DNA of 64,000 nt, from NCBI GenBank assembly GCA_973895155.1, contig OZ316891.1:27841045-27905044 (forward strand), written 5' to 3'. Of this stretch, positions 37,100-64,000 are shown in pieces. The DNA is from Marsupella aquatica. Its lineage: Eukaryota; Plantae; Marchantiophyta. Under the pieces are notes generated by a model, which searched no databases, was not told the origin of the DNA, and saw only the letters and a program-made list of their open reading frames with translations. Both the position numbers and the translations under genes were made by a program. Positions within the stretch are counted from its first letter, which is position 1. Every line of letters begins with the position of its first letter.

Positions 37100-37850
37100 A
37101 CAGAAGATGTCGAGGTGAGAAAAAGATGTCAAGGATAGAAAAAGATATAAAATGTGAAAAAGATGTTGAGGTGAGAAGAAGATATCAAGGTGAGAAAGCG
37201 TGCCAAGAGAGAAAAAGATTTTGAGGTGAGGAAAAGATATCAAGGTGAGAAAAAGATGTCAAGGAGAGAAAAAAGATGTTGAGGGAAAAAGAGGTCCAGG
37301 AGAGACAAATATTGTGAGGTGAGAAAAAGATGTCAAGCTAAGACAAAGTTGTCGAGGAGAGACAAATATTTTGAGGTGATGAAAAGATGTTGAGGAAAGA
37401 AAAAGATGTTGGGCAAGGTAAATATATTGATTGAGGCGAGAAAATACAGGGGAAAAGATGTTCAGGCGAGAAAACATGTTAAGGCCAAAAAAGAATGTGA
37501 AAGGAGGGCAAAGACATTGAGTAAAAAAAACATGTTGAGGCAAAAAAAAGATGTTGAGGCAAGAAAAGATGTTGAGGCAAGAAAAGATGTCAAGACGCAA
37601 AAAGATGTTGAGTCAAGGCAAAAATGTCCAGGTGAAGCAAGAAAATATATGCTTTGCAAGAAATACGTTGAGGCATGTTATGTGTCATTGCAGCCATATA
37701 GGTGTTGCAGCCATGTCAAGGCAAGGCAAAATTGTTGAGGTGAGGCAAAGATGTTGAGGCAAGACAAAACTGTTGAGGCAAGTTTAGATGTCGCAGTGAG
37801 GCAAAGATGTTGTAGTGAGGCAAAAATGTTGAGGCAAGACAAAGAAATGC
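37100..37850. repeat. Degenerate ~20-bp satellite (AAAAGATGTTGAGGYRAG); inverted relative at ~7480-7640
   Basis: Motif reiterated dozens of times. Confidence 0.85.
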
Positions 37851-38928
37851 ACGTCCGCCAAAGGAATGTAGACAATGCAAAGAAATGTAAATAGGGGAAG
37901 AAAGTTGTTTAAACATCTCAAAAGTTGTTGCGACCATGTTGTCATTGTTGTGATAGCTATGTTGTTGAGAAGAGCAAGGATGTGGGAGGATGAGAGGGAG
38001 TGCAAGAGAGGTGATGGCCACTTGTGGCTTTGCAGGGTCAGGTGTGGTTGCACAATGCTGTTGGGAGGGGAGCATTTTATTTTTTCTCTTCCCCTTTTTC
38101 CTACTTCTTCACTCCCTTGCCACTCCATTCTTCCCCCTCTTTCGTACCTTAGTTTGGCACCATTAACTAAACAAAAATGCAAAATTAAATAAAGAGTAGA
38201 AAAAGGGAGTTAAGAAAATTAACCCATTTTGCTTCTTTTTAAAGTTTCATAATTATACTCTATGCAAAAATCCAAACATTTTGTCATGAAAGTTTATCAT
38301 TCCTATGTGTGTACTTAGATTAAACAAAAAACAACATTTAAATTAATGTCACATAAGGTTGATTCATCACATTTTGGATGATGTCACATAAGAGTCATGT
38401 CACGTACTCTGTATTCTACTATAATGAGAAGTATATCACTTGACATTCCTGGTCAATCAATCCAAGCGTACACAAAAAATTCAAAATAAATCTGAGGTTC
38501 AGGTTGATTCCCTCCATTTTCAATTTTGTAAGCAGACGAAAGGACTTTGGCGGCATTGCATATTATAGAAATAGATATTAACTCTGAATTTACAAGAGGT
38601 AAATAATTAGGGTTGCAGAGACAATTTTTAGATATTAGACGGATTGTCTCCTCCTCAAAGACTTGTTGGACTATTGTTGGACTTCGTGAATTGGGGATGA
38701 AAGTGAAGGATTATTTAAGTAATTCTCATTTGTTCAGTTTTGAATATATTATGTCCACATTTCAATCTCGCCAAGCTCGCAATTGCTATTTAAATCCAAG
38801 AGATTCTTGAATACATAATTATGTCGATGCTTCTTGTCTAGTATCCTATTCCAATGTGAAATGATACTCCTTTAATATAAAACACAATGCTGACCGTCTA
38901 AGTTCTCTTTTGTGTGATTGCGATCTAG

Positions 38929-39995: not shown

Positions 39996-40622
39996 CTAAT
40001 TCTGTCCATGCCGTCGTTCAAGGGCTGCAAATTCTGTCCCATGCGTCCAACCTAAATATCCGGAGAAGTACATCCAACGGGTCCTTTCCAACACGCTATT
40101 GAGGTGTTCAACTTGCAGATTGGCCTGTCTGGCAACACGAGCCGCAATGGCATCCATTTCATCCATAGTGAGGAAGGCGGTGGCCTCCACTTCATCCAAA
40201 AATTGGACTTCCACTTCGTCCAAAACATACTCCGCTTCTCGCAAAAAACTCCCCGCTTCTTCCAATTCATTAATCACGTACTCCACTTCAATTCGGCCCA
40301 TATGGTTGGCCACCACTTGGGGAGTACCAGCTTTGTAGCCATTTCTGTAAGGCTGTTGGCAGATCTCACACAAAGTATTTCTTTTTGCGTCGCACCAATC
40401 CTGGAGACATTTTTGATGGACGTACTTGATCAAACCGAAGCAAGAGCATGGACTGTCGAGGTTTCTGAGCTCGTCCTTGTCGTGACAAATTCGGCAAGTG
40501 GGAAAGACGCCTGTCTCCGCAGTGCACGCTTCACTAGAACTATCGACCCTAGTTCCATTGCGCCCCAATGAATTGTCTGACAGCAGCTGGGAAGCCGATG
40601 GAATGTCGTTCGAACTGTCCAT
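39996..40622 (-). CDS. Intronless RINGv (RING-CH, C4HC3) domain protein, ~208 aa, acidic C-terminal half
   Basis: CRICH..SPCSC..YVHQKCLQDWC..CEICQQPY; first ATG at 40622. Confidence 0.75.
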   Translation of the reverse strand: MDSSNDIPSASQLLSDNSLGRNGTRVDSSSEACTAETGVFPTCRICHDKDELRNLDSPCSCFGLIKYVHQKCLQDWCDAKRNTLCEICQQPYRNGYKAGTPQVVANHMGRIEVEYVINELEEAGSFLREAEYVLDEVEVQFLDEVEATAFLTMDEMDAIAARVARQANLQVEHLNSVLERTRWMYFSGYLGWTHGTEFAALERRHGQN

Positions 40623-42907: not shown

Positions 42908-44932
42908 ATGGCATCCAGGTTCGGAGGTGTCAAGTTTGAGGTGGAAAAGTATGATGGGCGTACAGACTACTTGCTCTGGGAGAAGCAAGTGAAAGGAGTT
43001 CTTCGCGCTATGGGCCTAGATCATCTTCTCTCTACACAAGAGATGTACGATGATGAAGAGGAGATTCCACTAAAGAGGTGGAGGCAGGAACAAGTAATTG
43101 CAATGAATGCGGTGATGCTTTATCTAAAGCCGCATATCATCAAGAAGTTGGATGACTACGCGGATTGTGCATCTCTATTCAAAGCCCTAAGGGAGAAGTA
43201 CTATCGAGAGGATGTATCAGATCGATTGTACAAGAAGTCTCTCTTGATGAGCCTTAGGCTCAAAGAAGGGAACAAGCTCCAGGATCACTTGGATGAATTT
43301 GACAGCCTAGCTGTTGATTTGTCTAATCTTGGTAAGGGCGTTGAAGAAGAGGACAAGGCCTTGCTTTTTCTCAGCTCCTTACCCCCATCTTATCAGGGTT
43401 TGAAGCAGGTTCTCTTGTATAGAGACTTGAAGTCTATTTCATACAATGAGGTGGTAAGCTCTTTGCTGTCAGATGATGCACAGAAGAAGTTGGGTCAAGC
43501 CCAGACAGCATCGTCATCTGGTGCTGCCTTGAATGTGAATCGTGGGAGGTCACAACGGCGTCCCGAGCAGCGCACGAATGGCAAGGGATGAAGTAAATCT
43601 AGGAAAAGATTTGCTTCAAAGGGGAAGTTCCAGGAGAGAAAGCCAGTAGTCTGTTGGAAGTGTCACAAGGTTGGTCACATTAAGAGGGTTGGTAATGATA
43701 AGGCAGCTGAATCTTCATCAGCCAATGTGGCTAGTGCTGATGGAGAAGTTGATTTACTCAATGATGAGTATGTTTTATGAAGTCAGGAGTATGCCCTGTG
43801 CACATGATCTAGGAGAGCAAATGATGTGTGGATTCTTGATTGTGCTTGCTCCTTTCACATTTGTTACATTCGCGAATACTTCAATTCTTATTTTGTGTCA
43901 AACAGTTCAGTTTTGGTGGGAAATGATCACTCCTGTCGAGTTGAGGGTATTGAATCTGTAAAGATTCAAATGTTTGATGACATTGTGTGCACAGTGTCCG
44001 GAGTCAAGTTTATACCTGGCATGCGTAAGAATTTGATTTCACTCGGTGTGTTGGATACAAATGGTCATCAATGGCGAGTAATTGATGGTGAACTTCAAGT
44101 CATGTCGGGAGAGACAGTGATTTTGAAGGGGAGCAGACAAAAGAATTTGTATGTGTTGTAGGGCAATATAATATGTGGAGAGGCCAATGTAACCAAGTCT
44201 CACGAGGAAATGACTCAAATGTGACATTCACGGCTAGGCCACATGAGTGAGAAGGGTTTGGCTATCTTACGGAAGAATGGACTCATTTATAATTTGCAAT
44301 CTTGGAAATTAGAGTTCTGTGAGCACTACATTCTTGGAAAGCAGTATCGTCGTGCTTTCGGTGTTGGGACTCATCGTTCCAAAGCGGTTTTTGAGTACAT
44401 ACATAGTGATGTGTGGGGTCCATCCCCGACTCCCTCACACTCTAGAAAGTTGTACTATGTATTATTTATTGACGATTACTCAAGATTTGTGTAGATTTAT
44501 TTCATGACGCATAAGTCTAATGTCTTGTCCATTTTTACAAAGTGAAAGGCCGAAGTGAAGAATCAAACAAGAAACACTGTTAAGTGTTTGGATACAAGGG
44601 TGAAGAGTCTAAGGTCAGACAACGGCGGGGAGTACACTTCAATAGAAATTGAAGAGTACTATGCAGAACAGGAGGATAACTCGCCATCTCACCACAATTT
44701 ATACTCCGCAGCAGAATGGTGTCGCTGAGAGGCTCAATTGAACACTATTGGAGCGGTCATGGAGTATGCTGAGCCAATCAGGTTTACCAAAGGAATTTTG
44801 GGCAGAAGCTGTCAATACTACAGCTGATTTGGTAAATCTTTCTCCTTCTAGTGCAATCAATTTCAAAACGCCGTTTGAAATGCGTTATAAGCGGCAAACA
44901 GACTATCATGGCTTGGTAGTTTTTGGAAGTGA
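42908..44932 (+). pseudogene. Copia B gag-PR-IN with multiple nonsense mutations
   Basis: KYDGRTDYLLW, CWKCHKVGH, WILDCACSFH, YIHSDVWGP; stops at ~43589, 44159, 44222, 44492, 44543. Confidence 0.92.
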
Positions 44933-44949
44933 CACTAGAAGAAAACAGG

Positions 44950-45330
44950 GCCCTTTATGACCAATCACCCAATGACAGAGATGAATAAATGACCAAAAGT
45001 TTTAATGACACAAAAAGAATGACGGGGGAATGACTGTCCACAATGACCAATAGACTGAAATGACAAAATGTTAATTTTTTCGTCATTTTGTATAATGTCT
45101 ATAATGACTGATGCGACCAAAATGACCCAATTTCCCTAAATGGTCAATTTAGACACATGTCTTAAATGACACAATTAATAACAACAATGATAAATCAGTG
45201 TTTAGCAACATTATAGTCACTCTGGACAATGACTGAAATGACCAAAAATCTATTTGCATCATTTTGGACAACGGTGATAAATGACAAAAAATGTATTATC
45301 GTCATTTTAACCAACGGTGTTAAATGACAA
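44950..45330. promoter_or_regulatory. Left subterminal region dense in AATGAC/GTCATT motifs (right equivalent ~63230-63930)
   Basis: Many direct and inverted copies at both ends, as expected for TnpA-type binding sites. Confidence 0.75.
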
Positions 45331-45334
45331 AATT

Positions 45335-45830
45335 TAGGGTCAATCTGAAAATGAGAATATATCAGTGTTTACAACAACATATTGTCATTATGGACTTCTG
45401 CCATAAATGACTAACTCTAGGGTCAATCTTGAAATTAGGACATATTAGTGTTTACAAGAACATACCGTCATTATGGACTTCTCTCATAAATGACAAAATT
45501 TAGGGTCAATCTGAAAATGAGAATATATCAGTGTTTACACAACATATTGTCATTATGGACTTCTGCCATAAATGACTAACTCTAGGGTCAATCTTGAAAT
45601 TAGGACATATCAGTGTTTACAAGAACATACCGTCATTATGGACTTTTCTCATAAATGACTAACTCCACAGTCAATCTTGAAATTAGGATATATCGGTGTT
45701 TTCAACAACATACTGTCATTATGGACTTGTCGCATAAATGACTAAATATAGGGCAATCTAAAAATCAGGATATATCAATGTTTACAATAACATACAGTCA
45801 TTATGGACTTATTACATAAATGACTACTTA
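45335..45830. repeat. ~83-bp tandem array (~6 units, alternating A/B variants) in the CACTA left arm
   Basis: TAGGGTCAATC at 45335, 45418, 45501, 45583; each unit has GTCATTATGG..CATAAATGAC. Confidence 0.9.
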
Positions 45831-45909
45831 TAGAGTCATTAAAGAACCCAAGAGATATGAAGATTAAAATACTCAATAGTCATTCCAGACACCTATCATA
45901 ATTGTAGAG

Positions 45910-48900
45910 TCATACACCTTTGGAGTGATTTTCCAGAAGTGTCATCATATATGGATGCGCGCATACTATCGTATCCATGGGGCAAATGAAACCTTTTTGT
46001 CTCTCCAAGAAGTAGGGCAATACCAATGGAAGGTTGTCATGCTTTGTTGTAATTGTGTCATGTTTGTGCCGGTGTTTGGACGGGGAATATTTTAATTTGC
46101 AAATAAATGCATGCATACCATCACATCCAAAGGCAAATAAAAGTTGTTTTTTGGTTCTCCAAGAGGTAGTGCTGCCCCAATGGAATGGGCAGGGGAGTAA
46201 TGCTTCTCAGTATGGTGTGGGTGCATTCTCAGTATGGTGTGGGTGCAGGTTTAGGGAAGAGGAATATTCCAACCTTGCAAGGAATCTAAAGCTAGCTCTC
46301 TTTGGAGGTACTAGGGCCTTTATTGGGTCATATGTGAGCAATGGCCCGTCATAAATGCCAATGACTAAAAGTAGGGTCATTAAAATTGTCATATGGAGAG
46401 TCATATCAGTCTAATGACTGGATTTGTGGTCATTTGAGGGGTCCCTTATGTAGTCATTAAGGAAAAGCACAAATGACCATTTTGGGGCTAGGGGCTTGAG
46501 GTGGGCCCTAGAGTGCCATGGGCCCCACATAGAGGTGAGAACCCCTCCACTAGGTGCGGGACACTATACTCATCATTGTCCAACCACTAGTTGCGACATA
46601 AACACTTTGGGCACATGTTTTTGTGTTTCCTTAAGGCATGATGCACCTTTGGGGAAATCACTCCCAAGTCGTACGACTTTGGAGTGATTTGCCAAAAGTG
46701 CAACCATGGATGTATACCATCACATCCAAAGGCAAATAAAACCTGTTTTTTGGTTCTCCAAGAGGTAGTGCTGCACGAATGGAATGGGCAGGGGAGTCGT
46801 GCTTCTTAGCATGGTGTGGCTGTGGGATTAGGGTTTGGGAATATTCCAACCTTGCAAGGAATCTAAAGCTGGCTCTCTTTGGAGGTACTAGGGCCTTTAT
46901 TGGGTCATATGTGAGCAATGGCCCGTCATAAATGCCAATTACTACAAGAAAGGTCATTAAAATGGTCACATTGGATGTCATATAAGTGGAATGACCTGAA
47001 TTATTGTCATTTGAGGGGTCCCTCATGCAGTCATTAAGGAAAAGCACAAATGACCAGTTTGGGGCTAGGGGCTGGAGGTGCGCCCTAGAGTGCCATGGGG
47101 CCCCACATAGAGGTGAGAACCCCTCCACGAGGTGCGGGACACTATACTCATCATTGTCCAACCACTAGTTGCGACATAAACACTTTGGACACATGTTTTT
47201 GTGTTTCCTTAAGGCATGATGCACCTTTGGGGAAATCACTCCCAAGTCGTACGACTTTGGAGTGATTTTCCAAAAGTGTTGCCATGCATGCACACCATCA
47301 CATACAAAGGCAAATAAAAGTTGTTTTTGGGTTCTCCAAGAGGTAGTGCTGCCCAAATGGAATGGGCAGGGGAGTCATGCTTTTAGGGTATGGTGTGGGT
47401 GCAGATTTAGGGAAGAGGAATATTCCAACCTTGCAAGGAATCTAAAGCTGGCTCTCTTTGGAGGTACTAGGGCCTTTATTGGGTCATATGTGAGCAATGG
47501 CCCGTCATAAATGCCAATGACTAAAAGTAGGGTCATTAAAATTGTCATATGGAGAGTCATATCAGTCTAATGACTGGATTTGTGGTCATTTGAGGGGTCC
47601 CTTATGTAGTCATTAAGGAAAAGCACAAATGACCATTTTGGGGCTAGGGGCTTGAGGTGGGCCCTAGAGTGCCATGGGCCCCACATAGAGGTGAGAACCC
47701 CTCCATTGCGTGCGGGACACTATACTCATCATTGTCCAACCACTAGTTGCGACATAAACACCTTGGACACAAGTTTTTGTGTTTCCTTAAGGCATGATGC
47801 ACCTTTGGGGAAATCACTCCCAAGTCGTACGACTTTGGAGTGATTTGCCAAAAGTGTTGCCATGCATGCACACCATCACATACAAAGGCAAATAAAAGTT
47901 GTTTTTGGGTTCTCCAAGAGGTGGTGCTGCACCAATGGAATGGGCAGGGGAGTCGTGCTTCCCTGTATGGTGTGGGTGCGGGTTTAGGGAAGAGGAATAT
48001 TCCAACCTTGCAAGGAATCTAAAGCGGGCTCTCTTTGGAGGTACCAGGGCCTTTATTGGGTCATATGTGAGCAATGGACCGTCATAAATATCAATGACTA
48101 AAAGCAGGGTCATTAAAACTGTCATATGGAAAGTCATATCAGTCTAATGACTGGATTTGTGGTCATTTGAGGGGTCCCTTATGCAGTCATTAAGGAAAAG
48201 CACAAATGACCAGTTTGGGGCTAGGGGCTGGAGGTGGGCCCTAGAGTGCCATGTGACCCCACATAGAGGTGAGAACCCCTCCATTGCGTGCGGGACACTA
48301 TACTCATCATTGTCCAACCACTAGTTGCGACATAAACACCTTGGACACATGTTTTTGCGTTTACTTAAGGCATGATGCACCTTTGGGGAAATCACTCCCA
48401 AGTCGTATGACTTTGGAGTGATTTGCCAAAAGTGTCACCATGGATGCATACCACTATTCCAAACGCAAATGAAGCCCTTTTTTGTCTCTCCAAGAGGTAG
48501 CGCAACACCAATGGAATGGGTGTGGTAGTGGTGCTTCCCTCTATGATGTGTCTGATGTTTAAAGGTATACGATTATTCCATTTTTGCAAGGAATGTAGAG
48601 CGGGCTCTCTCTGGCGGTGCTAGGACCTTCTTTGGGTCATTTTTTAACAGAGTCATGTCATAAGTGTCAATGACCACAAGTAGGGTCATTGAATTGGTCA
48701 TATGGGATGTCATATAATTCAAATGACTGGACTTGTTGTCATTTGAGGGGTCTCTAGTGCAGTCATTGAAGACAAGCATGAATGACCAATTTGGAGCTAA
48801 GGGCTGGAGGTGGGCCCTAGAGTGCCATGTGGCACCACATAGAGCTCGCAACCCCTCCACTAGGTGTCAAATACTATAATTACTATTCTCCAACCACTAG

Positions 48901-50500
48901 TTGCACCATTAGCAGTTTGGAGCCATGTTTTTGTGTTTACTTAAGGGATGATATAATCTTGGGGAAATCACTCCCAAGTCGTACGACTTTGGAGTGATTT
49001 GCCAAAAGTGTCACCATTGATGCATACCATCCTATCTAAAGGAAATGAAGCCATTTTTTTGGTCTCTGCAAGAAGTAGTGCAAGGCTGTTGTCGTTCCAT
49101 GTAATTGTGTCATGTTTGTGCCGGTGTTTGGATGGGGAATATTCTATTTTGCAAATGAATAGTGATGGGGCACTCAAGAAGGTAGTGTAATCTTCATTGA
49201 GTCATTTCTGAAAAAATTGGTGTCATAAATACCAATGACTACAAGTAGGGTCATTAAATCTGTCATATGGGCTGTCACATAAGTCAAATGACTGGATTTG
49301 TGGTCATTTGAGGGGTCCCTTGTGCAATCATTAAGCAGAAGCACAAATGACCAGTTTGGGGCTAGGGGCTGGAGGTGGGCCCTAGAGTGCCATGGGGCCC
49401 CACATAGAGGTGAGAACCCCCTCCACTAGGTGCGGGACACTATACTCATCATCGTCCAACCACTAGTTGTGCCATGAACACTTTGGACACATGTTTTTGC
49501 ATTTACTTAAGGCATGATGCACCTTGGGGAAATCACTCCCAAGTCATACAACTTTGGAGTGATTTGCCAAAAGTGTCACCATGGATGCATACCACCGTAT
49601 CCAAGCGCAAATGGAGCCATTTTTTGTCTCTCCAAGAAGTAGCGCAACACCAATGGAAGGTTGTCATCTTGTGATGTAATTGTGTCATGTTTGTGCCGGT
49701 GTTTGGATGGGGAATACTCCATTTTGCATATGAATAGACTTAAGGCATTGTGAGTAGGTGTTGTAATCTTCATTGGGTCATTTTGGAGGAATAGTGTGTC
49801 ATTAATGCCAAAGACTGCAGTGAGGGTCATTTTGGCAGTCCTTTTGGAAGTCATTTGTGCCAAATGACTCCATATGGGGTCATTATAGAGGTCCCTCATG
49901 GTGTCATTACGTACCATCAGAAATGACCCTTTTGGGTCTAGGAGCTTAAGGTGGCCCTAGTGTGCCATGGGGCTCTACATGAAGGTGGCAACCTCTCCAC
50001 AAGGTGCGGGGTACTATACCCACCGTACTATTCTCCAACCACTAGTTGCACCATGAGCACTTTGGAGCCATGTTTTTGCAATTACTTAAGGGATGATGCA
50101 ACCTTGGGGAAATCACTCCCAAGTCATACAACTTTGGAGTGATTTGCCAAAAGTGTCACCATGCATGCATACCATCCTAAGGCATGCATACAAAAATTGT
50201 TTTTGTCTCTCCAAGAGGTATATAGTGCAATACTAGTGGAAGACTATGTCCTTCTATATAACTATGTCATGTTTGTGCCAATATTTGGATTTTGGATATA
50301 TTCTATTAAATTCCAAAGGAATTGTAAAGGGGCACTCCGAGAGGTAGTATACTCTTCATTGGGTCATTTTCACATAATGTGTGTCATTAATGTCAATGAC
50401 TACAATAAGGGTCATTTTGGTAGTCAGTTAGAGGTCATTTGGAGCAATTGACTGCATATGTGGTCATTAGAGAGGTCCCTCATGGTGTGTCATTAATGGA
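45910..50500. repeat. ~578-bp tandem array (~8 units) in the CACTA left arm
   Basis: Marker palindrome AAATCACTCCCAAGTC.TA..ACTTTGGAGTGATTT at 46655, 47233, 47811, 48389, 48965, 49530, 50110. Confidence 0.93.
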
Positions 50501-51074
50501 AACACCTCAAATTAGGGTAATCTTGGTTGTCATACTAGAGGTCAGAAGTACCAAATGACTGGAAATGTGGTCTTTACAAAGGCTATTGGGGGGTTCTCTT
50601 TGGAGGTACAAGGGAGTTCATTGGGTCATTTGTGAATTAAATGGTGCTTCAATCTGAGGACTAAACGTGGGGTCACTCACGCTGTCATATTGGAAGCCAT
50701 TAATGTTGGCATATTGGAGGTCATATAGTCATGGGAAGGCTCACTTATTAATGCTTTGGTGTAATGCTCTCAAAAACTCTTACACAACATAGCCTCATAT
50801 GTAGTGGTCATGTAGCATGTAAGGGACCCTATAATTGTGCTTGAGTCATGAATGAGGGTTTCTCTCAATTGAGTCAGGAGTGGAGAGCTATTAAATGCTA
50901 ATATTTGGATGAGTATCACTATCATATGGTGAGACAATAAGGTAGTCCAAAATGGTGTTCATGCATGCGGGTTATGGGTTTATATCGCGGGCATATATCG
51001 GACCTTTTATATCGCTAGCATCATTTTTTATATATAACATTGGTCCTTAACATTCTTGTTGGCACCTACACAAA

Positions 51075-51275
51075 CAGCCATGACCTTATGGGGGGGGTCG
51101 TGACATTATGAGTTATTAACCTTGCCTTCCCTACTTAGGGCCTTATGGGGGCGTCCGGACCTTGTTATTAACCTCTATAGTTGGTATTTCCCTAGGGCCT
51201 TATGGGGGGGGGGGTTTACATTGTTATTAACCTAGTCTCAACTTCCCTAGGGCCTTATGGGGGGTCCAGACATGT
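51075..51275. repeat. ~58-bp tandem repeat (CCTTATG(G)n..TTATTAACCT), ~4 copies
   Basis: Directly visible. Confidence 0.75.
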
Positions 51276-51837
51276 GAGAGATATTGTCAGAATATAACCC
51301 TAATTAATGACCCACAATATCCACCATCCCCATCCAACAGAATACCTTACCTTTACGGGCTTTAGGGGTCTAGCATTAGGTTTTTCCCGCTAAGTGTTCT
51401 TGCGTACCAACAGGAGCCCTTTTTCCTGAAAAAACATCGAGAGGGCAACGCTCGATGTGCTCATTTCTTGGCATGCCTTTGTGTGCACATTGCAAGGGCT
51501 TAGGGTTGCGCAGCGTTGTGCTCCATTCCACCAAGCTTCGACACCCTTCGAAGCGTTGGGCGAGGCATTGTTCGGGCAAGCATTGGGTGAGGCATTGTTT
51601 GAGTGAAGCGTTGGACGTGGCATTGTTTTAGTGACCATTTGCAAGGTTTAGAGGAGGAGCTCCGACCCGAAGCCATTCAGGCTACAATTGTTTTTGAGCT
51701 TGTTGCGCGCGGTCGGCGGAGCACCTCGGTAGGACTTGGGAGCTTCTTTGGAGGACCCTGCGCTTTGGAGGACATTCGGGCTTTGGAGTGCCCGATTGCA
51801 GGGTCAAGGCAATAGCTTCTTTACATTTGTCATTGTT

Positions 51838-52070
51838 GCGGGTGAGGAGCGGAGGATGAGCTGCAATCGGCGATAAGCTGCGGGTGAGGAGCGGAGGATG
51901 AGCTGCAATCGGCGATAAGCTGCGGGCGAGGAGCGGAGGACGACCTACAATCGGCGATAAGCTGCGGGTGAGGAGCGGAGGACGAGCTGCAAATCAGCGA
52001 CGAGTTGCAATCAGCAGCAAGCTACAATCGGCAAGAAGCTGTGGGTGAGGAGTTGCAATCGGCGAGAACC
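51838..52070 (+). repeat. GC-rich 42-bp tandem repeat, probably in the first non-coding exon of the CACTA transcript
   Basis: GCGGGTGAGGAGCGGAGGAYGAGCTGCAATCGGCGATAAGCT at 51838, 51880 and later copies; candidate donor AAG|GTCAGT near 52143. Confidence 0.8.
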
Positions 52071-54353
52071 TACAGGAGGTTCCATCAAGGAGCTGCGAGA
52101 ACTTATATCTGTGGGAGCGAGTTTGGGCTGAGGTGCGAGAAGGTCAGTTGTGCAATTTTGCGCTTCTTCCCCTTCTGGCCATTTGTTCATTCTGCATTTT
52201 TGCTTTGCTTTTGCCAATGTGCTACCAATGTGCTGTCAGTCCATGAATCCAATGTTGCCTTCTTGTTCTGTTGCTTAGTGTCTGCTAGTATGCTTATGGC
52301 AATGACAGAGAAGCTCCGATTGCTAAGAGACTATTTGCTCTCTCTTTCTCGCTCTCTCTCTGTCCCTCTCTCTCTAAGTGCCTGAGTTTTGCACCAGTTT
52401 TTGAATGTCTACAATGTTGAGTTCCCTTTGCAGAGAAATGTGAATGCAGTTTTCGAATGTCTAGAATGTTGAGTTCCCTGACGTGATGCGATGGAGCATC
52501 CTGGACGCGCACTGATTGTAGCAGTTGTGCGTGTCGTCGGCACTGTCATGGATTGGAGAAGGAAATCCCATAGAACTAGCCATTGCACTTTCTCGCACAA
52601 TGCCTGCATTTCCTTCCCTGTACCATGCTAGCTCCACTGCGACCTTCCACTGCTATCTATGTTGATTCCTTCCACTGCTACAAAATTCTGCTTTGCAATG
52701 GCATCCCAATGCTCATATGTCCCAGTAAAATTCGGGTAGACATAAGTATTAGGCGCGGACTCTTCTCTCTCTGCCTGCCCAAGATCAGGGTTTACTGGTT
52801 CTAATTGCTAATTCAGTCCCCATTTAGAAAGACCTAAGAAATTTAACTATCTTCGAGCTTTATTGTTTGTTTTGGCAAAATCTTCCTTTGCGGCCAGCAG
52901 CTGAGGCCCAGCGTCCACGATGTCCGATACATTTTTCAAGACATAAGTAAGCTGGCTGGGAAATGCCTTTCTCCTCAATCTCAAGAGATGATTTTTCTGG
53001 AGTCTGCTCACGTATTGCTCTTGCTTGTCCAGAACCTGAACAGCTATTTACCACAACTGAATCAAGTGCCCGAGTTCTGACCAAGTTGTCCTTTGTCTGT
53101 CTGCTGTTGATTTCTGATTGCTACTTGTTGGATTTGTCTGCTATGTTCAATTCAGTTTGTTGTCTTGTTGTCGTCTGACAATGTTTGTGGTGCAAGGTGA
53201 GCTTGATCTCTTATTATTACAATGTAGTCCTTAGTTTTCCATTGTATGATGTTTTCCTTAGTCTGTCTATGTTCCTCAATGAATTGGTTTCCTTACTCTT
53301 CTTTTGACATCCCTCTGTATCATAGCCCTTTTCTTTTCTCTTTTTTTTACTGAAGAGAAGTGCAAGCATGTATGGTGAATCCTCACTTGATTCCAGCAGC
53401 GACTCTGTAGAATTTTGTCGCCAAAAAGTTTCAGAGTTTCGTGTGTGGTTTGCCAACTGCTGTGCCACCTCAGAGAATTCCTTAGTGGCTTTTGTACAAG
53501 CCTTGCTCTTCAACTATGGTAATTTACAGCTAACTGTCTGATGTTCACACAACATCCATACACAGCAATGAATACAACTCCATGAATACAGCCACATGAT
53601 TTCCTTTGGTCTGCAAACTGGACAAAACTAAACTAAAATCAGCTTGGTCAATTTTAAATCCTTCGTAAGGGTCTCTGACAGCAGCCCGGTATAGTCATTT
53701 GTGCACGAAGATAGAGTACGGTGCAGCTTTTGAAAAAGTGGGTGGACCAGCAGCTTGTTGAGAGTAAAGCAACTTATGGTTCTGTAACAGATGTGTGCAG
53801 CAGCTTAAGATGTAGAAGGCACACAATAAAACTTGATTTTTACAGATTTAAAAAAGGGCAGGGTGAGTGAGCACTGCATGTTGAACTCACAGGTCCGAAT
53901 CTTGATTTGATTTCGCTGCTAAAATTCGTATCTCTTGCCTGAGTCCCAGTTTGCTGGAGTTTTGTTGCTCTCTGTGCTTTGTTGTGCACATTGTTGTGTT
54001 TGCTCTGTCCATTTTAAAACTTGAGAGCCAAATGAATGCTTTGCTGAAACTCAATTGCTATTTTTTCTGTGTTGCCCTTACAGATTTTAAAAAGGCAGGG
54101 TGAGTGAGCACTGCTGTACAGCAAGCAAAGGCATACAGGTTGCAATATTTGTGATTGCTTCCAATCATCTAGGCCAAGGTTATTTGCGCTGCTCAGTCCT
54201 AAATGCTTTGCCATCTATAAAGCATTGGTTTATGTTGCACCCTTGTGGTTACATGTCATATTTTATGCTGCACCCTCATTCTTTTGTGTCATACTGCACC
54301 CTGTTATTCCTTCTTGTTTCACAATCTGATGTAGGGTCTGAGTGTGCAGGACC

Positions 54354-55013
54354 ATGGCTCGCAATAAGCAGAAGGCCATGAATCGTTGCAGAGGTGAATC
54401 CTCTCAAGCACCTCAATTGTCCTTATATTCAGACATTGAGATTAACCAGAATAGTCCACATGTATGTGCGATTTGTGATGAGGGAGGGGATCTCATTGTT
54501 TGTGATGGGCCTTGCCACCGACATTTCCATAAGAATGTTTCCTGTCCTTTGGGTCAGCAATGGCTATGCCCAACTATATCCCTCGCTGATGGCCATGTTG
54601 GAGAATGGCTTTGTGTTGATTGCAAGAATGAGGAACATTCTTGCTTTAAGTGCCATGTGTCTGGAAAAATTGGTGAAGAGGTAAGAAAATGTCCAGACTC
54701 TCTCTGTGCCCGGTTTTACTGTCGGCAGTGTTTGGTTCCTGGCACAGCATCATGTGGACTCCATATTTGTCTTACTTGTGGACAGGGGCCCAATGATGGG
54801 GCTAATGGCTTTTTGGTTCAGTGCATGAGGTGTCCTAAGGCATGGCACAAAGACTGCCTGCTGTTTATCCAGCAGAGGGGATTTGCCCATGATCGAACAA
54901 TTTGGGATCACTCAGCGCATGGGCAGCCCAAGAAGGGGATGTTTTACTGTCCTGACCATGACATTGACCCTACACTAGGCACTCCTGCTAGGAGCCACAT
55001 ATCTTGGATTTGA
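54354..55013 (+). CDS. CACTA-borne stand-alone EDM2-like PHD-finger cluster protein (219 aa) with H3-tail-like N-terminus
   Basis: ACCATGG context just after a TGCAG acceptor; CAICDEGGDLIVCDGPCHRHFH..C..WLCVDCKNEEHSCFKC..C..C..CGLHICLTC..QCMRCPKAWHKDCL..YCPDHDIDPTLGTPARSHI follows the EDM2 PHD layout as I recall it. Confidence 0.85.
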   Translation: MARNKQKAMNRCRGESSQAPQLSLYSDIEINQNSPHVCAICDEGGDLIVCDGPCHRHFHKNVSCPLGQQWLCPTISLADGHVGEWLCVDCKNEEHSCFKCHVSGKIGEEVRKCPDSLCARFYCRQCLVPGTASCGLHICLTCGQGPNDGANGFLVQCMRCPKAWHKDCLLFIQQRGFAHDRTIWDHSAHGQPKKGMFYCPDHDIDPTLGTPARSHISWI

Positions 55014-55610
55014 TTGAGGCTGGATCGAACACAAACTTGAGATAGAGCTTTTTGATGGTTTCACGTGGACTTAAACAATTTTCAGAGTGCTAAAACATGT
55101 GGACTATTTATATGCAGTTTGATGAACTCCTCATGTATACACACTCTACGACAGTGCATTGCGGATTGAGGCAATTAATTTTGAGAAATCAACTTTATTA
55201 TCTTTTCCAGGGTAGGATTCTGATTTTCAAGCATGTACTTTGAGTGTGACTTTCCTCCATATTGATGTCTAAACTTCACTTGTAAATTTGTCACTGGTGT
55301 CACAAACGTTACTTATTCCAGACCTGTCTGCTCACATTCCTAATAGGCAAACAAATACTGGAAATGATGAAGGCACAGAGATTTACGTTCATAGTATCAT
55401 TCTGATGACACTGTATGTGATGCTCTATTTGTATGCAAGGAGAAGGTGCCCTACTACAGTGGATTTGAGAAACTGGGCTCTGTGGGTTTGAGCAATTGGA
55501 CTGTGGTTGGCATCGGTTGTACAACTGTGACGGTAGGCCCAATTTTGTATGCATGTCACTCTGATTCAGTTTGAAAATCATAGTTTGAATACAATTTCAA
55601 TCAAGCTAGC

Positions 55611-58600
55611 ATGGCACAATTGCCACAGAATACGTTAGGTGTGGGTAGAACTCCAAAGTTGCCGCTCTTCCATCCAGCTAGAGTACAACATCGTGATGAT
55701 GCTTTGTGGGTTCGAGAACAGAAGGCCTGCCACAAGAGTGGGGACCATAAGATGTACTGCCCTTGTGTGAACTGCAAAGGGAATTATAGGACTAATCGGA
55801 ATACTGCTAGACTGCACCTTATTAAACATGGTCGGTACCCTGCATGTCGAGTGTGGGTGGGAGAGGGACAGGACTCTTCTGATGAAGAGTGGGGTGCTGA
55901 CTACATGTCACAACATGGCCCTGAGGCATTGAGGGTAGCAAACCTTCAGCAGGCAACCTGTGCACAACAGCCAACTGTAGATGTTGAAGAACATTTATTT
56001 GTAGATGTTCCAGAGTATCCAACTGTGGATGTTCCAGAGTATCCAACTGTGGATGTTCAAGAACATCCAACTATAGATGTCGAAGAACATATCAGGGCTC
56101 TACTGGAAGAAACGTTGCTGAGAACCAGTGAAGAATCCCCTGAGCATGAGCTAGATGATCAGGACCGTTTTGACTTGGATTTTGTACTTGGGGATGATGA
56201 GAGTGAAGGAGGTGCCCATCCTGTAAACCCCCTTGAAACCTCCAAAACTCCTGTGGAGACTGATCCTGCACAGTTATCTTTAGATGCAGCAATGCAACCT
56301 TTGTTCCCAGGCAGCAAAATAGATGTTGTGTCATTCATGTTGCTTCTGCTGAACATCTGTCATGGCCATGGATTCTCAAACAAAGGAGTGAATGCATTGT
56401 TGTCTTTGATGGGGGAGCATGGTATGCCTACAGAGCATAATCTGCCCAAGAACTTATATGCTGCAAAGCAGCTATTGAGAAAGCTTGGCTTGGATTATGA
56501 GAGAATCCCTGTCTGTGAGAAAGGTTGTATGCTCTTTAGGGGTGAGAATGCCAAGTTAGAAAACTGTTCAGTGTGTCAGCAGCCCAAGATGAAGAGAGTG
56601 GGGAATTCATTACAGGCAAGGAAGGTAGTGCGGTATTTCCCTATAATTCCCAGGTTGAAGAGATTGTATGCCACTGCTGGTACATCTAAACTCATGACTT
56701 GGCATCATGAGAATAGAAGCACAGACAACATGGTTCGGCACGCAGCAGATTCAAAGGCTTGGAAGCATGTGGATACAAATATTGATCGGGAATTTGCAGC
56801 TGAACCAAGGAATGTGCGATTTGGGTTGGCACTTGATGGGGTGAATCCCTTTGGGAATAATTCCACAGCTTGGTCTACCTGGCCAATACTGTTGTTGAAT
56901 TACAATTTACCTCCTTGGCTTACCACCAAGAAGTTCTTTGTCATGCTAGCTATGCTGATTCCAGGACCTGATTCAGTAACAGAGGAACAGCTAGACATAA
57001 TATTGGGCCCATTCTATGAGGAGTTGGAGCTGTTGTGGAAGAAAGGAGTGCCCTGCTTTGACAAATTGCCACGCCCAGGATTGTCTCAACACTTCAACCT
57101 TAGGGCTGTGCTATTGTGGACAATCAATGATTACCCTGCATATGGTTTAATATCTGGACAACAACACTCTGGATACAAAGGATGTGTCATCTGTGGGCCA
57201 GAATGTGTGGCACGTGGTTCTAAGCACTTGCAGAAATTAGAGTACAGTGGCCACCGTCGATGGTTAGCAACAAGGCATCTTTTTCGTAGACCAGATAGTG
57301 CACAATACTTTGATGGTGCAATTGAGAGTCGACCTGCACCGTGTAGAATGACAAGCTCTGATAGAAAGAAGTGGGGAGACGAGACAACAGAATATTTGAA
57401 GAAGGGAGGAACCAAGGTTGAGGATGAGAAATGCCCCATAAAGGTGCATGGAGTGAAGAGGGCTACTGGTCTGTACAAGTTGCCCTATTGGAATGTAAGA
57501 CTCCATACTACTACAATGAATTTCTGCAATCTCTTCATATGACTTTGAAATATATTCTCTTCATATACTTCCTGTAGCCCAGATTTTGTAATTGTTGTAT
57601 TCAATGCACTAATTTCTGAATTGTGTCCACTGCACAAACTACTGCCCAGTGATGCCAAAAGTTGTATTCAATGCCCTAATTTCTGAATTGTGTGTCCACT
57701 GCAGAAACTACTCATTAACCATTGTCTAGATCCCATGCACTGTGAGAAGAATCTTGCACACAACATTGTGCACACTATCATTGGGACCAAGGACACTCCT
57801 TCTGTGAGAGAAGACATGAAGCTCTTACAGGTGCGCCAACACCTATGGCTTGTACCCAATCCAGCTCCCAAGCGTAAGGATGACAAATTGTTGATGCCCC
57901 CAGCCCCATATTGCCTGAGCAAGAAGGAAAGAACAAGGTTCTTGGAGGTTTTATTGACCTTGAAAGGGCCCACTGGTTTTTCAAGTTCTTTGGCAAAGTG
58001 TGTTACAAAATCCAAGAAACTCTCTGGGTTGAAATCACATGATTTCCACCAACTCATGCAACAGATTCTCCCTCTGGCAACAATGGGATTACTTGATGAA
58101 GGGGTTCGCTTGGCCATAGCTGGGGTGAGCAATATCTATCGCCAGATCTGTACGAAGGTGTGGGACCCTTCAATGTATGAGAATTTGATGATGGATGTTG
58201 CATTCACTCTCTGCATTTTGGAAATCCATTTTCCACCAAGCTTCTTTGATGTCATGACCCATTTAATGATTCACCTAGTGGAGGAATTAGACTTGTGTGG
58301 CCCAGTTACAGGCAGATGGATGTACCCAATAGAGAGGAACCTGAAGGTATTGAAGGGTTATGTACGAAACAAGGCACGTCCAGAGGCTTCTATGGCTGAA
58401 GGCTATGTATTAGATGAGTCTTTGGGATTTCTTTCTGAATACATGATTGATGCAAAGGGAGAGGGAAAACGAACCTGGGAGTTGGAGGAGGATGCTGGCG
58501 TTGCAGGCATTGTTTTGGAAGGGGCTGCAAAGGCGATAACTTTGGATTGGTCTGAAATGATGGCCATGCATCATTATATATTAGAGAATGAAGAGACAGT

Positions 58601-59604
58601 GGCTCCATGGTATAGGTACATAAACCCTAGAAACTCTCCTATCCTTAGGCATATGGATCATAATTATGTTTCCCCATTGTGTTTGTATATTCATGGTGGA
58701 TCGTGCACTAATGTCTTCAGTGTTGTTGTTGCCATGCAGGATATATGATGCTACCAATGAGACTGTTACCAAACGAAGAGTGGATTTCCGGAAGGAGTGG
58801 ATGAGGAAGCCTGCCAATCGAAGAAAACCAGTGGAATTTCCCGTAGACTGCCAAGAATTGCCACCTTTCAGGGAATGGTTTCAAACATTAGTCAATACCC
58901 ATAATTTTGAGAAAGAGTCTGAGCGGTCATTACTATCTGCATACTCCACACCACCTAGTTTGAAGGCACGACTGTATAGGGCATGTAGAGCCTATGGGCA
59001 CCATTGGAGGACTATTCCATCCTTGGGGTGTTTGAGTGATTGTGATTCTGGTGCTTTCAGCACTTTTGATTCTGGGATGGCTTCTACATTCACTGAGAAG
59101 CGAGTGGACAGGTCTGGTGCAACCATAGAAGAATCTGTACAGTATGTAGGGGCCTTGACAGATATCTTGGTACTGAATTATGGCAGCTTGAGGAAAGAGG
59201 TGATTCTTTTCAAAGGGAAATGGGCAGATCCATCATGGACTCCTAAATCCTCTGCCAGTATGAGGTATACCAAGTCTGGTCTTTGGCAGGTGAATTTCCA
59301 TAGAGAACTGGGTGTGTCCAAGAAAATGGATTACGTTTTCCCAAAGCAAGTGGAGCAGGTTTTCTTCCACCCCAATGAGAAGGGGATAGCATGGAGAACA
59401 ATCCTCCACAAAGAATCCAGGTCCACAAGGGTGTTAGGTGATTACACAGACGTTGATTTCCATGCTACAATGGAAAACAATGTCAAATTACACATCGAAT
59501 TGGCTAAGGCCTGTAGGTCCAGAGAAAATCCAGGACCAAGTACTGGTCCCAAACGAGGCAGAGATGCAGAGGGATCTGCAAGAAAGGGCAGGCCTAAGCA
59601 GTGA
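55611..59604 (+). CDS. CACTA transposase (TnpD/TNP2-like), exons 55611-57494, 57705-58615, 58740-59604; 1219 aa, intact
   Basis: CPCVNC..HL N-terminal domain, LALDGVNPF, WTINDYPAYG, DPMHCEKN, GLKSHDFH, PPSFFDVMTHL, RWMYPIER, YVFPKQVEQVFF; 3660 nt in frame. Confidence 0.95.
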
Positions 59605-59702
59605 ATAGGTTTTAGCTAGGTGTGTGAAGTCCATAGATGGACTACATGTATGGACTATTTATGAAATCAGACTAATGGTTTATCCATTTGTGCAGTTGGT
59701 GA

Positions 59703-62700
59703 ATGCAGCCTGTGAAAGGAAGATTGCAAGGGTTGTCACATTCTGTGAATCCTTATGAGGAGGCCCGAAATCGGAACATAGAGCATAATGTCAGAATTAT
59801 GCGTGATCTAGGACTGGGGCCAGACTGCAAGCTGATGTGTGTGTTGATATGTCTATTGCAAATTTGATTCAGTAGATGGAGTTGTCAGGTTCATGTTCTG
59901 TTTTCATATTCCAGATTGGTCTCATACTAGTATGGATCCTGTACATAAGTACTAGTGTTATGGTGTTGTAGATTCATTTTGCATGTATGTTTGATCTGCA
60001 TTGGTGTATGTTGATGATTGCTTTGTTCCTTAGAGGCCCAACCACACATGTACAACGAGAGAGAGGAAAGCCTGCTTTGGTGAAAGGTACTTCAACTGAA
60101 ACATTGCCAAAGAGGAGGAGCTCTAGACTATCAGAAGTTACCAAGGTGAACATGGCAGAGTTTGGTGATGATGGCTATGGTTCTCCTTCTGAGTATGACA
60201 CTGAGGATTCTGACATTGGAGGGTCAGAACCAGAGAGTGCACAACAGGTAATGCTTGAACTTCATCATCCTAATAGGAAGGGATCCTTGTCCCTTTTTCA
60301 AATTATATGTTGATATGCTTACGTTGTCCATGATGTAGGTACAGAAACAAAATCGTGGTCCTAAGAAGACTGGGCCTGGTGGAGGTGGGCTAGTGAGATG
60401 TTGGAAAGACCCAGACACTGGACTCTTATATGAAAGTGAGTGGATTGTACTGTTCTACTTTTCAGGTGTGTTTGGAAGTTGATATTCTACTTGGAAATGA
60501 AATTAATTGAAGTGCTTTGGTGTTGTGTGTTTGTTTAGTGGTTCCATCAGCATCTGAAGGCAGATCAGGTCAATCTGATGTACTACATTCCAGAGGATCT
60601 TCAGGTAATACACAATCTGCTCGTGTTGCATATGCAAGTACATTTGCTCAACTTTTCAATCATGTACATATTTTTTGATTGAATGCATGTGTGTGCATTG
60701 CAGGAGGGGCCTCTGAGATGCGCAGGGAACGAAGGCATGCTAAGAAGCAGTTTGATAATACTGCCAAACAACGAAGGGATTGCGGAGAGGTGCCCAAACA
60801 CATTAAAGTGAGTATTGTACTTGTTTGTAGATTTAGACAAATCTGATCCTCTCTGTTGTTGTGTGTATAAAACCTGGACTCTGCATAAATTCCAGAGTTA
60901 TGATCTGACATTGTCTATGAAATGCAGATTTATGACAATGATATTGATGATTCTGATGGCAACAAACAATACTGGCTGGAGGAACTTCGTGGCAACGTAC
61001 TCAGAGTCTTTGATGTATCAAAGCCAAAATGGACTGATCATCCACAAGTTCATACAACCACAGTGTGGAATAACATGGCAGCTGAGTGGGAGTATGTGGG
61101 TGGGGAATTTATTAACACCAAATTCCAGAGTCATTGTCGTGGCATATTGAAGAGAGAGCGCCATAAAATGCATGTTTATTGGAAGAAAGTTTGCAATGAG
61201 GATCCAACCAAACTTGGGCCATCTGGTGTTGATCCAAAGAAATGGGCAGCTTTGGTATCTCATTTTACCAGTCCAGCATTGATATCTTTGAGTAAACAGA
61301 TGACTGATAAAAGAGCACGAGTGCAAGATACCTCTCACTTTGGAAGGGGAGGGCATGCTGCAGCAGCAAAGAGAATGGTAAATTGTCTATCATTTTCACT
61401 ATCAATTCTGTCTTGTTTGTGAATCTTGATGAAAACAAACTCTGTGATTTCTCATTCATTGTGTGTTTGAACAGAAGCAGAAGAGAGGATCAAGCCCAGG
61501 TATATCTGACCTGAAAGAAAACCATGGTAGTCAGGGTTCATTGCCAAAGGTGACAATGAGCCCATCATTGGCAAGTGCAGAAGGTCAGACTGGTAGTTTT
61601 GTGGGAGCAAAGGTGAGCCCATCATTGGCAAGTGGGGAGGGTAAAAGTGCTAGCTTACTGGGGCAAGGAAACAGACATGGATCAGCTGTGAGTATTGTCA
61701 TACCAATTTGATTTGTACATCATTCTCCATTTGACAGAGCCAGTGTTGTGTCGTTTGTAAGTTTGACAGTGAGACTGTTGTGTTGGTTTGTGGTTCATTT
61801 ACAGACCCCACATTCAAAAGAAGAGATCACTGCCATTGGGGCTGTGAAATTGGATGTCGCTGAGTTGAAAGGCACTGTGAGGGAGTTGACAAACATGATG
61901 ACTACGTGGATGGCACATCACCCCAGTAATGCACAAGTTCCAACAGTTGTGCCTAGTCACAGTAAGTTGACTACAACTACCAAACAAGGTAGTAGAAAGC
62001 GATCTCTTACTTTTTCAGGCGATAATGAAGGTAAAATTCTCTATCATGTATACACTGTCCATTCAATGTAATTATTGTGATGTGTATATGTCATTGCATG
62101 TTTATAATGTTCTTGCATGTTTTTAGTGTGATTATATGTTGCTGGTGTATACATGTTTGTTTATGCATTTCTTTTGTGTGTGTTTTATGACAGCATCTTT
62201 AGGGGAGCCTCCTGTGTCGCAGGGAAGACCAACTGACACAGCTAACAGTACTCTAAAGCAAACTGAATTGGAAGTGAACCTTTTGCCATCTAAGTTGCCC
62301 AAAGAAGCCATTTCAGATGTCTTTCAGTTGCCAGAGGATAAGTCGACTCAGTTGACACCAGATGTAACCCCAGAATCATCTGAGTTGCCAAAAGAAACTC
62401 CCATTCCAAGTGAACAGGATGACACTCCATCAACTAGAAAGGGAAAGAAGAAAAGGAAGAAAGGATCCTCAGCAAATGCATCACCTGCACAGAAGAAACC
62501 AATGCAGTCTCCTAACCCCGTTGCAAAGGTAAATGTGTGTTTGATTTGAGTGTTCTTCTATCTTTCAATTTCTGTTTATTGCATTTTTAACAAAATGTGT
62601 TGTTCACAGTTTGCAAGAGGAGATTTGGTGAAGATGAAGAGCGTTGTGGACAATTCCATGATAGTGGCAGAAGGTGAGGTGACAGGGCTGCCAGGAGAAG

Positions 62701-62870
62701 ATAAGTTTCATTGTGCAGATTTTGAAAGCCCTTTCTTGCGAGTGCGTGTGATTGAAGTGTTTGTAGATGTGGCATTGCCATTTGCCAATTCAGGGGAGAA
62801 CCAGTCTAAATTATCTGATGTGAAAGGGATGAATGCCCTATGGAACTCTAGATTGCTTAAGAAGCAATAG
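59703..62870 (+). CDS. CACTA ORF2 (TnpA-like), ~10 exons; some exon boundaries uncertain
   Basis: Exons flanked by AG/GT sites; PSGVDPKKWAALVSHF..SKQMTDKR..SHFGRGGHA (Ptta/En-Spm ORF2-like) and C-terminal IVAEGEV..RVRVIEV..LPF..LW (Tnp1-like). Confidence 0.78.
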
Positions 62871-64000
62871 AAATAGCACTCTATCAAGAAACAATAGACA
62901 TGATAGAATGACAACTCTGTTTTTCTATAAACATGCAGAGTGATTGGTATGTCAGGTTGTAACAATTGACAATCTAATATTATTGATGTCAATGTAATTT
63001 TGTTTCATAAATTTGCATTGAGTTCAATATTTACCGTGAGACTTATGAAGGTATCTTGTATGAATATCAATTGGATTTGTGATATATATCGAATGTTTCT
63101 TTAAGTTTTCATTTAGCAACTCTATTGAATGGCTTTGTAATATATGATTTTTGATTGACATCAAGTTTTATCTATCATGATCACTTAAATTTGAATTTCT
63201 CCAAATCATTGAATACTTCGTCTGAATGATTGGCTTGAATGACTAAATGACTAGCTAGAATGACTGATGTAATGGTCATTATTCACAACTATCTTTGTGA
63301 CCAATATGACTCAACTCTGGTCATTAAAGACATAGACTAAATGATTCAAAGAATGACATATACAATGACCTTTCTCATGGTCATTATAAACAAGTCCACT
63401 ATGACTCACTTTATGTCATTCAAGACATGTCATTAATGACTAATGTGTATCTTTACGTGTCTTCTCCCAATTGAACCACGTGTCTCAATATGACTTGTTT
63501 ATACTGTAGTCATTTTGGACACGTCCAAAATGACCCAAATATATTGCCAAATGGTGAATCCTCTTTGAACCACGTGTCACTATTTGATTTGTTATATAAT
63601 GTACGTCATTTTGGACTGTCCAAAATGACCAATGTTATTAGTTTTTTTATTGCCACGTGTCGTTGTGTGATTGGGTACGGGGACCATCGACGGTCAACGG
63701 CAATTGACCGTCGATGGTGATTTGTGTCGTCATTTTGGACCGTTCAACATTTATGACCATATCATAAAAACGGTCATTTAGGATAGTATGAAATGACCAC
63801 ATGTTTTTAGCGTCATTTGTCCAAAAGGACCGTGACCAAAATGTCCGTTGTGACGTGTCTGGAAAGACGAGAACAATTGCGTCATTGTTTTGTTAAAAAG
63901 ACCTGATTAATAGTCATTGTTTTGGTCATAAAATACATTGTTTTCTACTAGTGTGATGCATATGCTCACACAACAAAGCAGAATAGGATCAAGTTGGATC

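Follow-up and report, generated by a model that had tools for sequence, protein, structure and literature searches.

A CACTA transposon of 19,021 bp (positions 44933-63953 of the 64-kb window, the whole stretch of DNA analyzed here) carries, as a third gene beside its transposase and TnpA-like genes, a stand-alone gene for a PHD cassette of the EDM2 type. The gene lies within an intact element and is not an artefact, and by comparison of sequenced copies it is under purifying selection and kept with the element. Through this gene the element likely engages chromatin, and a probability of roughly 0.4 is given to the reading that its product is a chromatin adaptor that brings TnpA/TnpD onto nucleosomes.

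The element was assigned to CACTA/En-Spm from terminal inverted repeats (TIRs) starting with CACTA, a 3-bp target-site duplication, a transposase with Transposase_21 (4.5e-66), DUF4218 (8e-36) and DUF4216 (3e-5) in Pfam, and subterminal repeats, with a hexamer density of 26-30 per kb at both element ends versus 0.62 per kb outside (Table 1). The TnpD model consists of three GT-AG exons with no internal stop, and among named transposases those of Calypogeia (53%) and Riccia (40%) come closest, which makes a liverwort-like bryophyte the likely host. The exons tested of the TnpA-like gene gave no Pfam match, and a tandem HTH domain, a feature of the class, is putative here. Because TnpD is open and a TnpA-like gene is in the expected place, the element looks autonomous. 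The left flank matched the other copia of the window (294-4300) at 86% over 1,507 columns and the match picked up again past the right TIR (94% over 48 columns), and therefore the element inserted into a copia; together with the premature stops, this bore out the initial annotation, in which the element was placed in a dead copia. The copia insertion was set aside as evidence for the proposed targeting of H3K9me2 chromatin, as a single insertion carries little information.

Table 1. Coordinates of the CACTA element, the PHD gene and the interrupted copia within the window
Feature	Position	Strand	Details
Broken copia interrupted by the element	42908..44932, resumes 63954-64000	+	Retrotran_gag_2 1.6e-22; premature stops
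Left target-site duplication TGA	44930..44932	+	TGA/TGA, 3 bp
Left TIR, starts CACTA	44933..44947	+	14/15 bases identical to right TIR
Left subterminal repeat region	44948..45933	.	30 AATGAC/GTCATT hexamers in first 1 kb; 82-83-bp repeats
About eight copies of a 577-bp tandem repeat	45994..50600	.	Families D1-D14
Three candidate leader mini-exons	53156-53196, 53846-53862, 54084-54099	+	AG/GT borders from sequence
Stand-alone EDM2/NSD-type PHD-cassette gene, 219 aa	54354..55013	+	Open frame, Pfam, alignments, selection, tree
H3-tail-like N-terminal nonapeptide	54357..54383	+	5/9 identical to H3 1-9
Rebuilt segment up to Cys1 of finger 1	54447..54467	+	Q-x-S/A-P/A-H-V-C replaces acidic patch
TnpD transposase, 1219 aa	55611..59604	+	Exons 55611-57494, 57705-58615, 58740-59604
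TnpA-like gene, nine exons, 654 aa open; first exon unlocated	60034..62870	+	Named by position only
Right subterminal repeat region	63140..63938	.	21 hexamers in 814 bp
Right TIR	63939..63953	-	Pairs with left TIR at 14/15 bases
Right target-site duplication TGA	63954..63956	+	Matches left TGA

Each unit of the 577-bp tandem repeat contains an imperfect palindrome of about 60 bp, and a 42-bp G-rich tandem repeat lies at 51837-51992, in the presumed leader of the element. Elsewhere in the window, the second copia copy (294-4227, minus strand), 86% identical to the interrupted one, has three separate long ORFs for gag and pol. A single-exon RING-variant ORF of 208 aa (39996-40622, minus strand; RINGv 1e-13; CpG observed/expected 0.83) is possibly a retrocopy or cargo. 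The ORF at 16106-16414 (minus strand) begins with a putative organellar ribosomal protein L24 start of 21 residues and then reads into a probable intron. Degenerate tandem arrays with strong strand skew were found at 37077-37862 (19-bp) and 5148-5363 (18-bp).

The PHD ORF starts in the context gaccATGG, is uninterrupted for 219 aa and ends 597 bases before the TnpD ATG on the same strand. An ACCATGG start, an intact ORF of that length and a position inside the TIRs upstream of an intact transposase of the same strand had all been described in the initial annotation and were confirmed, the TnpD frame being open. A chance ORF was rejected. The coding part is intron-less, as close relatives align end to end. 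Splice acceptors at 54334 and 54349 and the candidate mini-exons precede the ATG, so the 5′ leader of the gene probably comprises several exons; the earlier description of a single-exon ORF holds for the coding part. Among eight exon combinations tested upstream of the ORF, one would add 12 residues in frame. Two of the mini-exons (53846-53862 and 54084-54099) are duplicates of 16-17 bases with strong donor and acceptor sites.

Pfam matches of the PHD ORF were PHD_NSD (5e-8) and PHDvar_NSD (2e-7) above the cut-off and PHD and PHD-1st_NSD below it. Residues 26-216 aligned with the PHD cassette of a quinoa EDM2-like protein (29% identity, E 2e-20, 191 residues), and this alignment, which includes the C-terminal YC..H.I...LGTP.R.HI motif, confirmed the earlier attribution of the Cys/His pattern and the motif to the EDM2 PHD cluster. 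In the accessible text of the source, the EDM2-type cassette is defined by repeated atypical PHD units ending in His, C4HC2H (PMC3776765); the ORF has such units, with one finger-2 His being Cys. Full EDM2 is described, in the part of the source available, as having a methyltransferase-like ELP domain and acidic and proline-rich regions (PMC7529245). The PHD ORF has none of these and no RFD-like part, and its stop comes right after the cassette, in agreement with the initial annotation of a stand-alone EDM2-type PHD and no other EDM2 domain. A PDB sequence search gave 9 matches, with NSD3 (2e-10) and NSD2 best and no plant structure among the nine. An NSD rather than EDM2 origin was ruled out because EDM2-family matches cover the C-terminal motif and score higher.

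A search of 1.84 billion representatives gave 376 proteins matching at E 0.001. The best five of the 376 were 166-245 aa long (42-45% identity) and were followed by long EDM2-family proteins, the named proteins nearest the top of the list were from Marchantia, Riccia and Calypogeia, and host-type matches had 30-48% identity. Three closer stand-alone proteins (83, 71 and 53% identity) end at the same residue as the PHD ORF. Eleven members with 39-85% identity have 34 invariant columns, 18 of which are Cys or His. When longer proteins were searched, 1 of 1,323 candidates matched; it was an EDM2-like protein of a host, and none of the candidates was a fusion of transposase and PHD, which is weak evidence. 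A first fold from 11 sequences (pLDDT 70.8) was superseded by a 60-sequence model of the relative P0002 (pLDDT 85.7, pTM 0.81), in which residues 1-28 are predicted to be disordered. Structural matches of this model were NSD and PZP PHD modules with modest scores, the best being NSD2 PHD-C5HCH (Z 5.3, rmsd 2.6, 75 aligned), and an atlas search gave PHD/NSD-type clusters only (best 0.90).

The stretch is present in five runs from three organisms, none of them listed as RNA, and four of the runs were compared. Across 51000-63960, all 30 bins are covered by contigs of these four runs, one of which has a contig of 1,204 bases that alone spans the whole PHD ORF, with four substitutions; among the contigs listed from the runs, none bridges the PHD ORF and TnpD. 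Variants in the PHD ORF (40 of 49 variant rows, four runs) comprised 24 synonymous, 16 replacement and 0 stop changes. With 24-27% expected to be synonymous, pN/pS is 0.21-0.25 (P about 1e-5), a rough count because the rows are unphased and partly from shared contigs. The ratio of synonymous to replacement changes was 12:8 in common and in rare variants alike, one frameshift was found, its contig having a 5% share, and the sole change of a ligand Cys was in a rare variant. CpG observed/expected was 0.25 for the PHD ORF, 0.22-0.25 for TnpD, 0.26 for the TnpA-like gene and 0.51-0.54 for copia. The comparison of dN/dS among copies suggested in the initial annotation was made here as pN/pS, whose value (from unphased rows) is far from 1, and none of the outcomes named there as counting against the idea (decay at a ratio near 1, near identity to host EDM2 exons, lack of a PHD match) was found, the identity being 29% to the quinoa EDM2-like protein and 30-48% to host-type matches. 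A recent passive capture was rejected on the same identities and pN/pS, on the single clade with its long branch, and on a CpG depletion equal to that of the transposase.

Trees were built from 133 cassettes (fast) and from 48 of them (careful); the latter kept the stand-alone rows minus two near-duplicates and sampled the hosts. In the 48-cassette tree the stand-alone rows were monophyletic (9/9, support 100/99). The stem leading to them measures 1.25 changes per site, and branches inside the clade are longer than among flowering-plant EDM2, so that the phylogeny against host EDM2 that had been proposed earlier returned a separate clade on a long stem. By these branch lengths, the capture is old or fast-evolving. 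The sister group consisted of seven methyltransferase-less paralogs, five of them named as liverwort (89/83), and grouping of the clade with true liverwort EDM2 was an alternative that was not rejected (p-AU 0.46). The donor may therefore have been a methyltransferase-less EDM2 paralog rather than EDM2, the sister position not being firm. Separate short PHD-only EDM2-like genes encode 250-390 aa in grasses and 280 aa in Marchantia (P0045, P0098, P0114, the P0027 cluster and P0021).

Residence in a transposon was seen directly for the window copy alone. The distant member P0011 (44% identical PHD) and P0303 (37% identical Transposase_21) have the same source and the same longest contig of 13,432 bases, one match among two members with contigs long enough for both genes; on this indirect evidence, P0011 is probably on one contig with the CACTA transposase P0303. 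A metagenome scan gave one locus from 52 pattern matches (L001), a broken copy of the PHD gene with no transposase within its 1,495 bases. Viral and prokaryote collections contained no match for the PHD ORF and none for the transposase, and no annotated genome protein was found in the eight clade clusters looked up.

Of the H3 groove, one side is conserved together with the fold, its motif being retained, and the K4 side is rebuilt, its acidic patch being replaced. The retained motif is G-G-x-L-x-x-C-D, present in the clade as GG(D/E)L..CD, and G45, L47, C50 and D51 of this H3 A1/R2-side motif are invariant in 11/11 members. In AIRE-type fingers this motif binds R2. An acidic cluster before the first Cys is a feature of H3K4me0-reading PHDs of the AIRE/BHC80 type in the accessible text of PMC3241642. 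Asp or Glu was found within six residues before Cys1 of finger 1 in 0/19 clade members versus 109/110 host-type proteins (110 parsed and 12 unparsed; finger 1 only), and 18/19 members have His two residues before Cys1. Features of an H3K4me0 reader are thus divided, with the hydrophobic L47 before the third Cys and the R2-side acidic D51 present and the acidic cluster absent. One ligand of finger 2 is Cys in 11/11 parsed members versus His in 45/46 parsed hosts (76 hosts were unparsed by the pattern), and the spacer is 7 residues in members versus 10-43 in hosts. An ordered, family-specific helix packs before finger 1 in the P0002 model. With one histone-contact site rebuilt, EDM2-like mark reading is improbable, and the PHD protein probably does not read marks as EDM2 does. 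According to a review (PMC7472560), H3K9me2 is among the marks that the PHDs of EDM2 bind, and distal polyadenylation is promoted by the ASI1-AIPP1-EDM2 complex; from the residues compared here, the H3K9me2 binding cannot be assumed for the PHD protein.

An H3-like motif at the predicted N-terminus of the window protein (the start Met is predicted from sequence alone) was overlooked in the initial annotation. Compared with residues 1-9 of H3, at least four positions matched in 7/18 members and three or fewer in 11/18; P0002, the closest relative, matched at 7, and the window protein, P0009 and P0026 (from its second Met) at 5. Background Met-nonamers had at least four matches in 17/4,483 and five in 2/4,483, and shuffling gave P of 0.0007 for the window protein and 0.00004 for P0002. 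The first two matches were probably inherited, because MAR is also the start of 13/135 host-type proteins, EDM2 of algae, liverworts and Selaginella among them. Within the EDM2 family, this start was seen in green algae, Mesotaenium, liverworts and Selaginella (P0012-P0016, P0029, P0033, P0049, P0071), most seed-plant EDM2 start acidic (MASSDDE-type), and three unrelated short grass EDM2-like proteins begin A-R-x-K. The conserved free A-R N-terminus may gate the protein's own finger; docking of the tail on the PHD was seen in neither monomer model, and a 24-residue N-terminal piece of P0002 gave no PDB match at E 10, the query being too short to inform.

As an adaptor, the PHD protein would be made from the 5′ promoter of the element by alternative splicing, finger 1 would still hold the H3 N-terminus through the GG(D/E)L..CD motif and, because the K4-side acidic patch is replaced, mark preference would be unlike that of EDM2. 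Through contact of the cassette with TnpA or TnpD in trans, silenced copies would be activated or excised, or target choice would be steered. Such an arrangement would parallel that of RAG2, which serves RAG1 as a separate PHD subunit. The location, open frame, domain identity, purifying selection and single clade described above underlie the adaptor reading. In the accessible text of a preprint, TnpA activates Arabidopsis Spm while H3K9me persists (bioRxiv 10.64898/2026.08.24.746577), so Spm-type elements operate inside H3K9me chromatin, and PHDs are described as fused in other transposon enzymes, Rehavkus and Gypsy-7a_cRei, in the available parts of PMC6446971 and PMC9940879. The adaptor reading is weakened in that fused PHDs act in cis and a free PHD needs an interface, which is putative here. 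To our knowledge most CACTA elements transpose without such a PHD gene. Loss of the acidic patch could equally mean lost histone binding, and some plant PHD signatures, in VEL proteins, reportedly do not bind H3 (PMC9640981). If histone reading was lost, the rebuilt cassette would bind a host protein or nucleic acid as a scaffold, to the benefit of the element, which is unlikely here: the changes at the K4-side site and in finger 2, fixed throughout the family along its long stem, the ordered helix before finger 1, and the ability of PHDs to bind non-histone ligands (PMC3241642, in the text available) agree with it, but the four invariant residues of the A1/R2-side motif do not. Retention of H3K9me2 reading, with the ASI1-AIPP1-EDM2 complex recruited or competed with to give a full-length transcript, was favored by the initial annotation and is now very doubtful. 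The clear EDM2-family descent, the marks and distal polyadenylation described for EDM2 (PMC7472560, as far as accessible) and a transcript that would be long and intron-rich (nine-exon and three-exon models) are consistent with it. However, the acidic patch is lost in 19/19 members, finger 2 is altered in ligand and spacer, the RFD-like, methyltransferase-like and proline-rich parts are absent, the nearest host group is itself without the methyltransferase-like domain, and the AIPP1-binding part of EDM2 was not found in the literature. The earlier claim of retained H3K9me2 reading was given up on these grounds, and that of RNA processing through the EDM2 complex is unsupported, all other EDM2 domains being absent.

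Histone-mimic counter-silencing is known from viruses. By such a route the free N-terminus would mimic the H3 tail and weaken silencing of the element, either by occupying or being modified by host readers and writers of H3K4/K9 or by gating its own PHD. The H3 matches in 7/18 members against a low background and shuffle P, the predicted disorder of residues 1-28 and the A-R-x-K starts of the three grass proteins point to such a decoy, but the majority of members (11/18) match at three or fewer positions, the pattern was noticed post hoc, MAR starts occur in 13/135 host-type proteins, a nuclear-localisation signal or a DNA-binding arm would also account for a basic N-terminus, and the tail is undocked in both monomer models, with one splice combination adding 12 residues ahead of it. 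The decoy is accordingly judged improbable, and its fullest form, a plant DNA transposon that encodes a histone mimic together with a rebuilt EDM2 reader and that docks on and soaks up, or is switched by, the H3K4/K9 machinery, a little more so. Least probable is a passive Pack-CACTA cargo, or a host gene family sitting in the element. Gene fragments captured by CACTA elements typically lie on the 5′ side of the transposase (PMC8978399), grasses and Marchantia have short EDM2-like host genes with a PHD part only, and context was seen for few clade members. Nevertheless, copies from three organisms give a pN/pS of 0.21-0.25, the clade contains no annotated genome protein in the eight clusters looked up, many members look broken, as expected for transposon copies, and the CpG depletion is transposon-like. 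The hallmark of Pack-CACTA, high host identity with neutral decay, was not seen (host-type matches 30-48%), and passive cargo is largely refuted.

In a search of full texts outside subscription journals and Repbase, neither a PHD gene carried by a CACTA element, whether EDM2-type or stand-alone, nor a histone mimic encoded by a transposon was found. The word PHD does not occur in the accessible text of a survey of 962 Spm protein structures (bioRxiv 10.64898/2026.08.24.746577), and PHD is likewise absent from the main text of a 2026 atlas of transposon products in Arabidopsis (PMC13547354). Fused transposon PHDs and accessory anti-silencing genes are already known. A free histone-reader gene drawn from the heterochromatin machinery of the host, rebuilt and selected, would be a route in the conflict between transposon and host that differs from that of the known anti-silencing proteins VANC and TnpA, which recognise DNA motifs. 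The fixed changes of the cassette amount to a natural mutagenesis of the EDM2 PHD module. Because the element looks intact and the protein is small, transposon function in H3K9-methylated chromatin is directly testable in a bryophyte.

Among known systems, EDM2 and EDM2-like proteins have the same PHD cassette and C-terminal motif, and the clade branches among streptophyte EDM2-family cassettes, whereas the PHD ORF is cassette only, has lost the acidic patch, has a changed finger-2 ligand and spacer, and is transposon-borne. The methyltransferase-less paralogs of liverworts (Marchantia, Riccia, Calypogeia; 280-770 aa) are the nearest host group and have the cassette at the C-terminus, and the Calypogeia protein has a segment before finger 1 in common with the PHD ORF family, but these paralogs keep acidic residues before Cys1 and have long N-terminal regions. 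The cassette of NSD1-3 is the best PDB match in sequence (NSD3, 2e-10) and in structure (NSD2); the PHD ORF differs in having no SET or PWWP, and NSD matches are weaker than those of the EDM2 family. VANC of VANDAL (Mutator) and TnpA of Spm/CACTA are likewise transposon-encoded and, in the accessible accounts, act on the chromatin of the element by sequence-specific binding of DNA motifs, VANC through non-coding motifs of its element and with hypomethylation in trans, whereas the PHD ORF has a host-derived histone-reader fold beside a TnpA-like gene; no VANC family was among its Pfam matches. PHDs fused in the Rehavkus transposase, the Gypsy-7a_cRei polyprotein and, reportedly, CR1 ORF1 are, in the texts available, cases of transposons keeping a PHD, but belong to other superfamilies, while the PHD ORF is a separate gene with a whole EDM2-type cassette. 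Pack-CACTA fragments have the same position 5′ of the transposase; the PHD ORF differs from them as a whole folded module, under purifying selection and far from any host sequence found.
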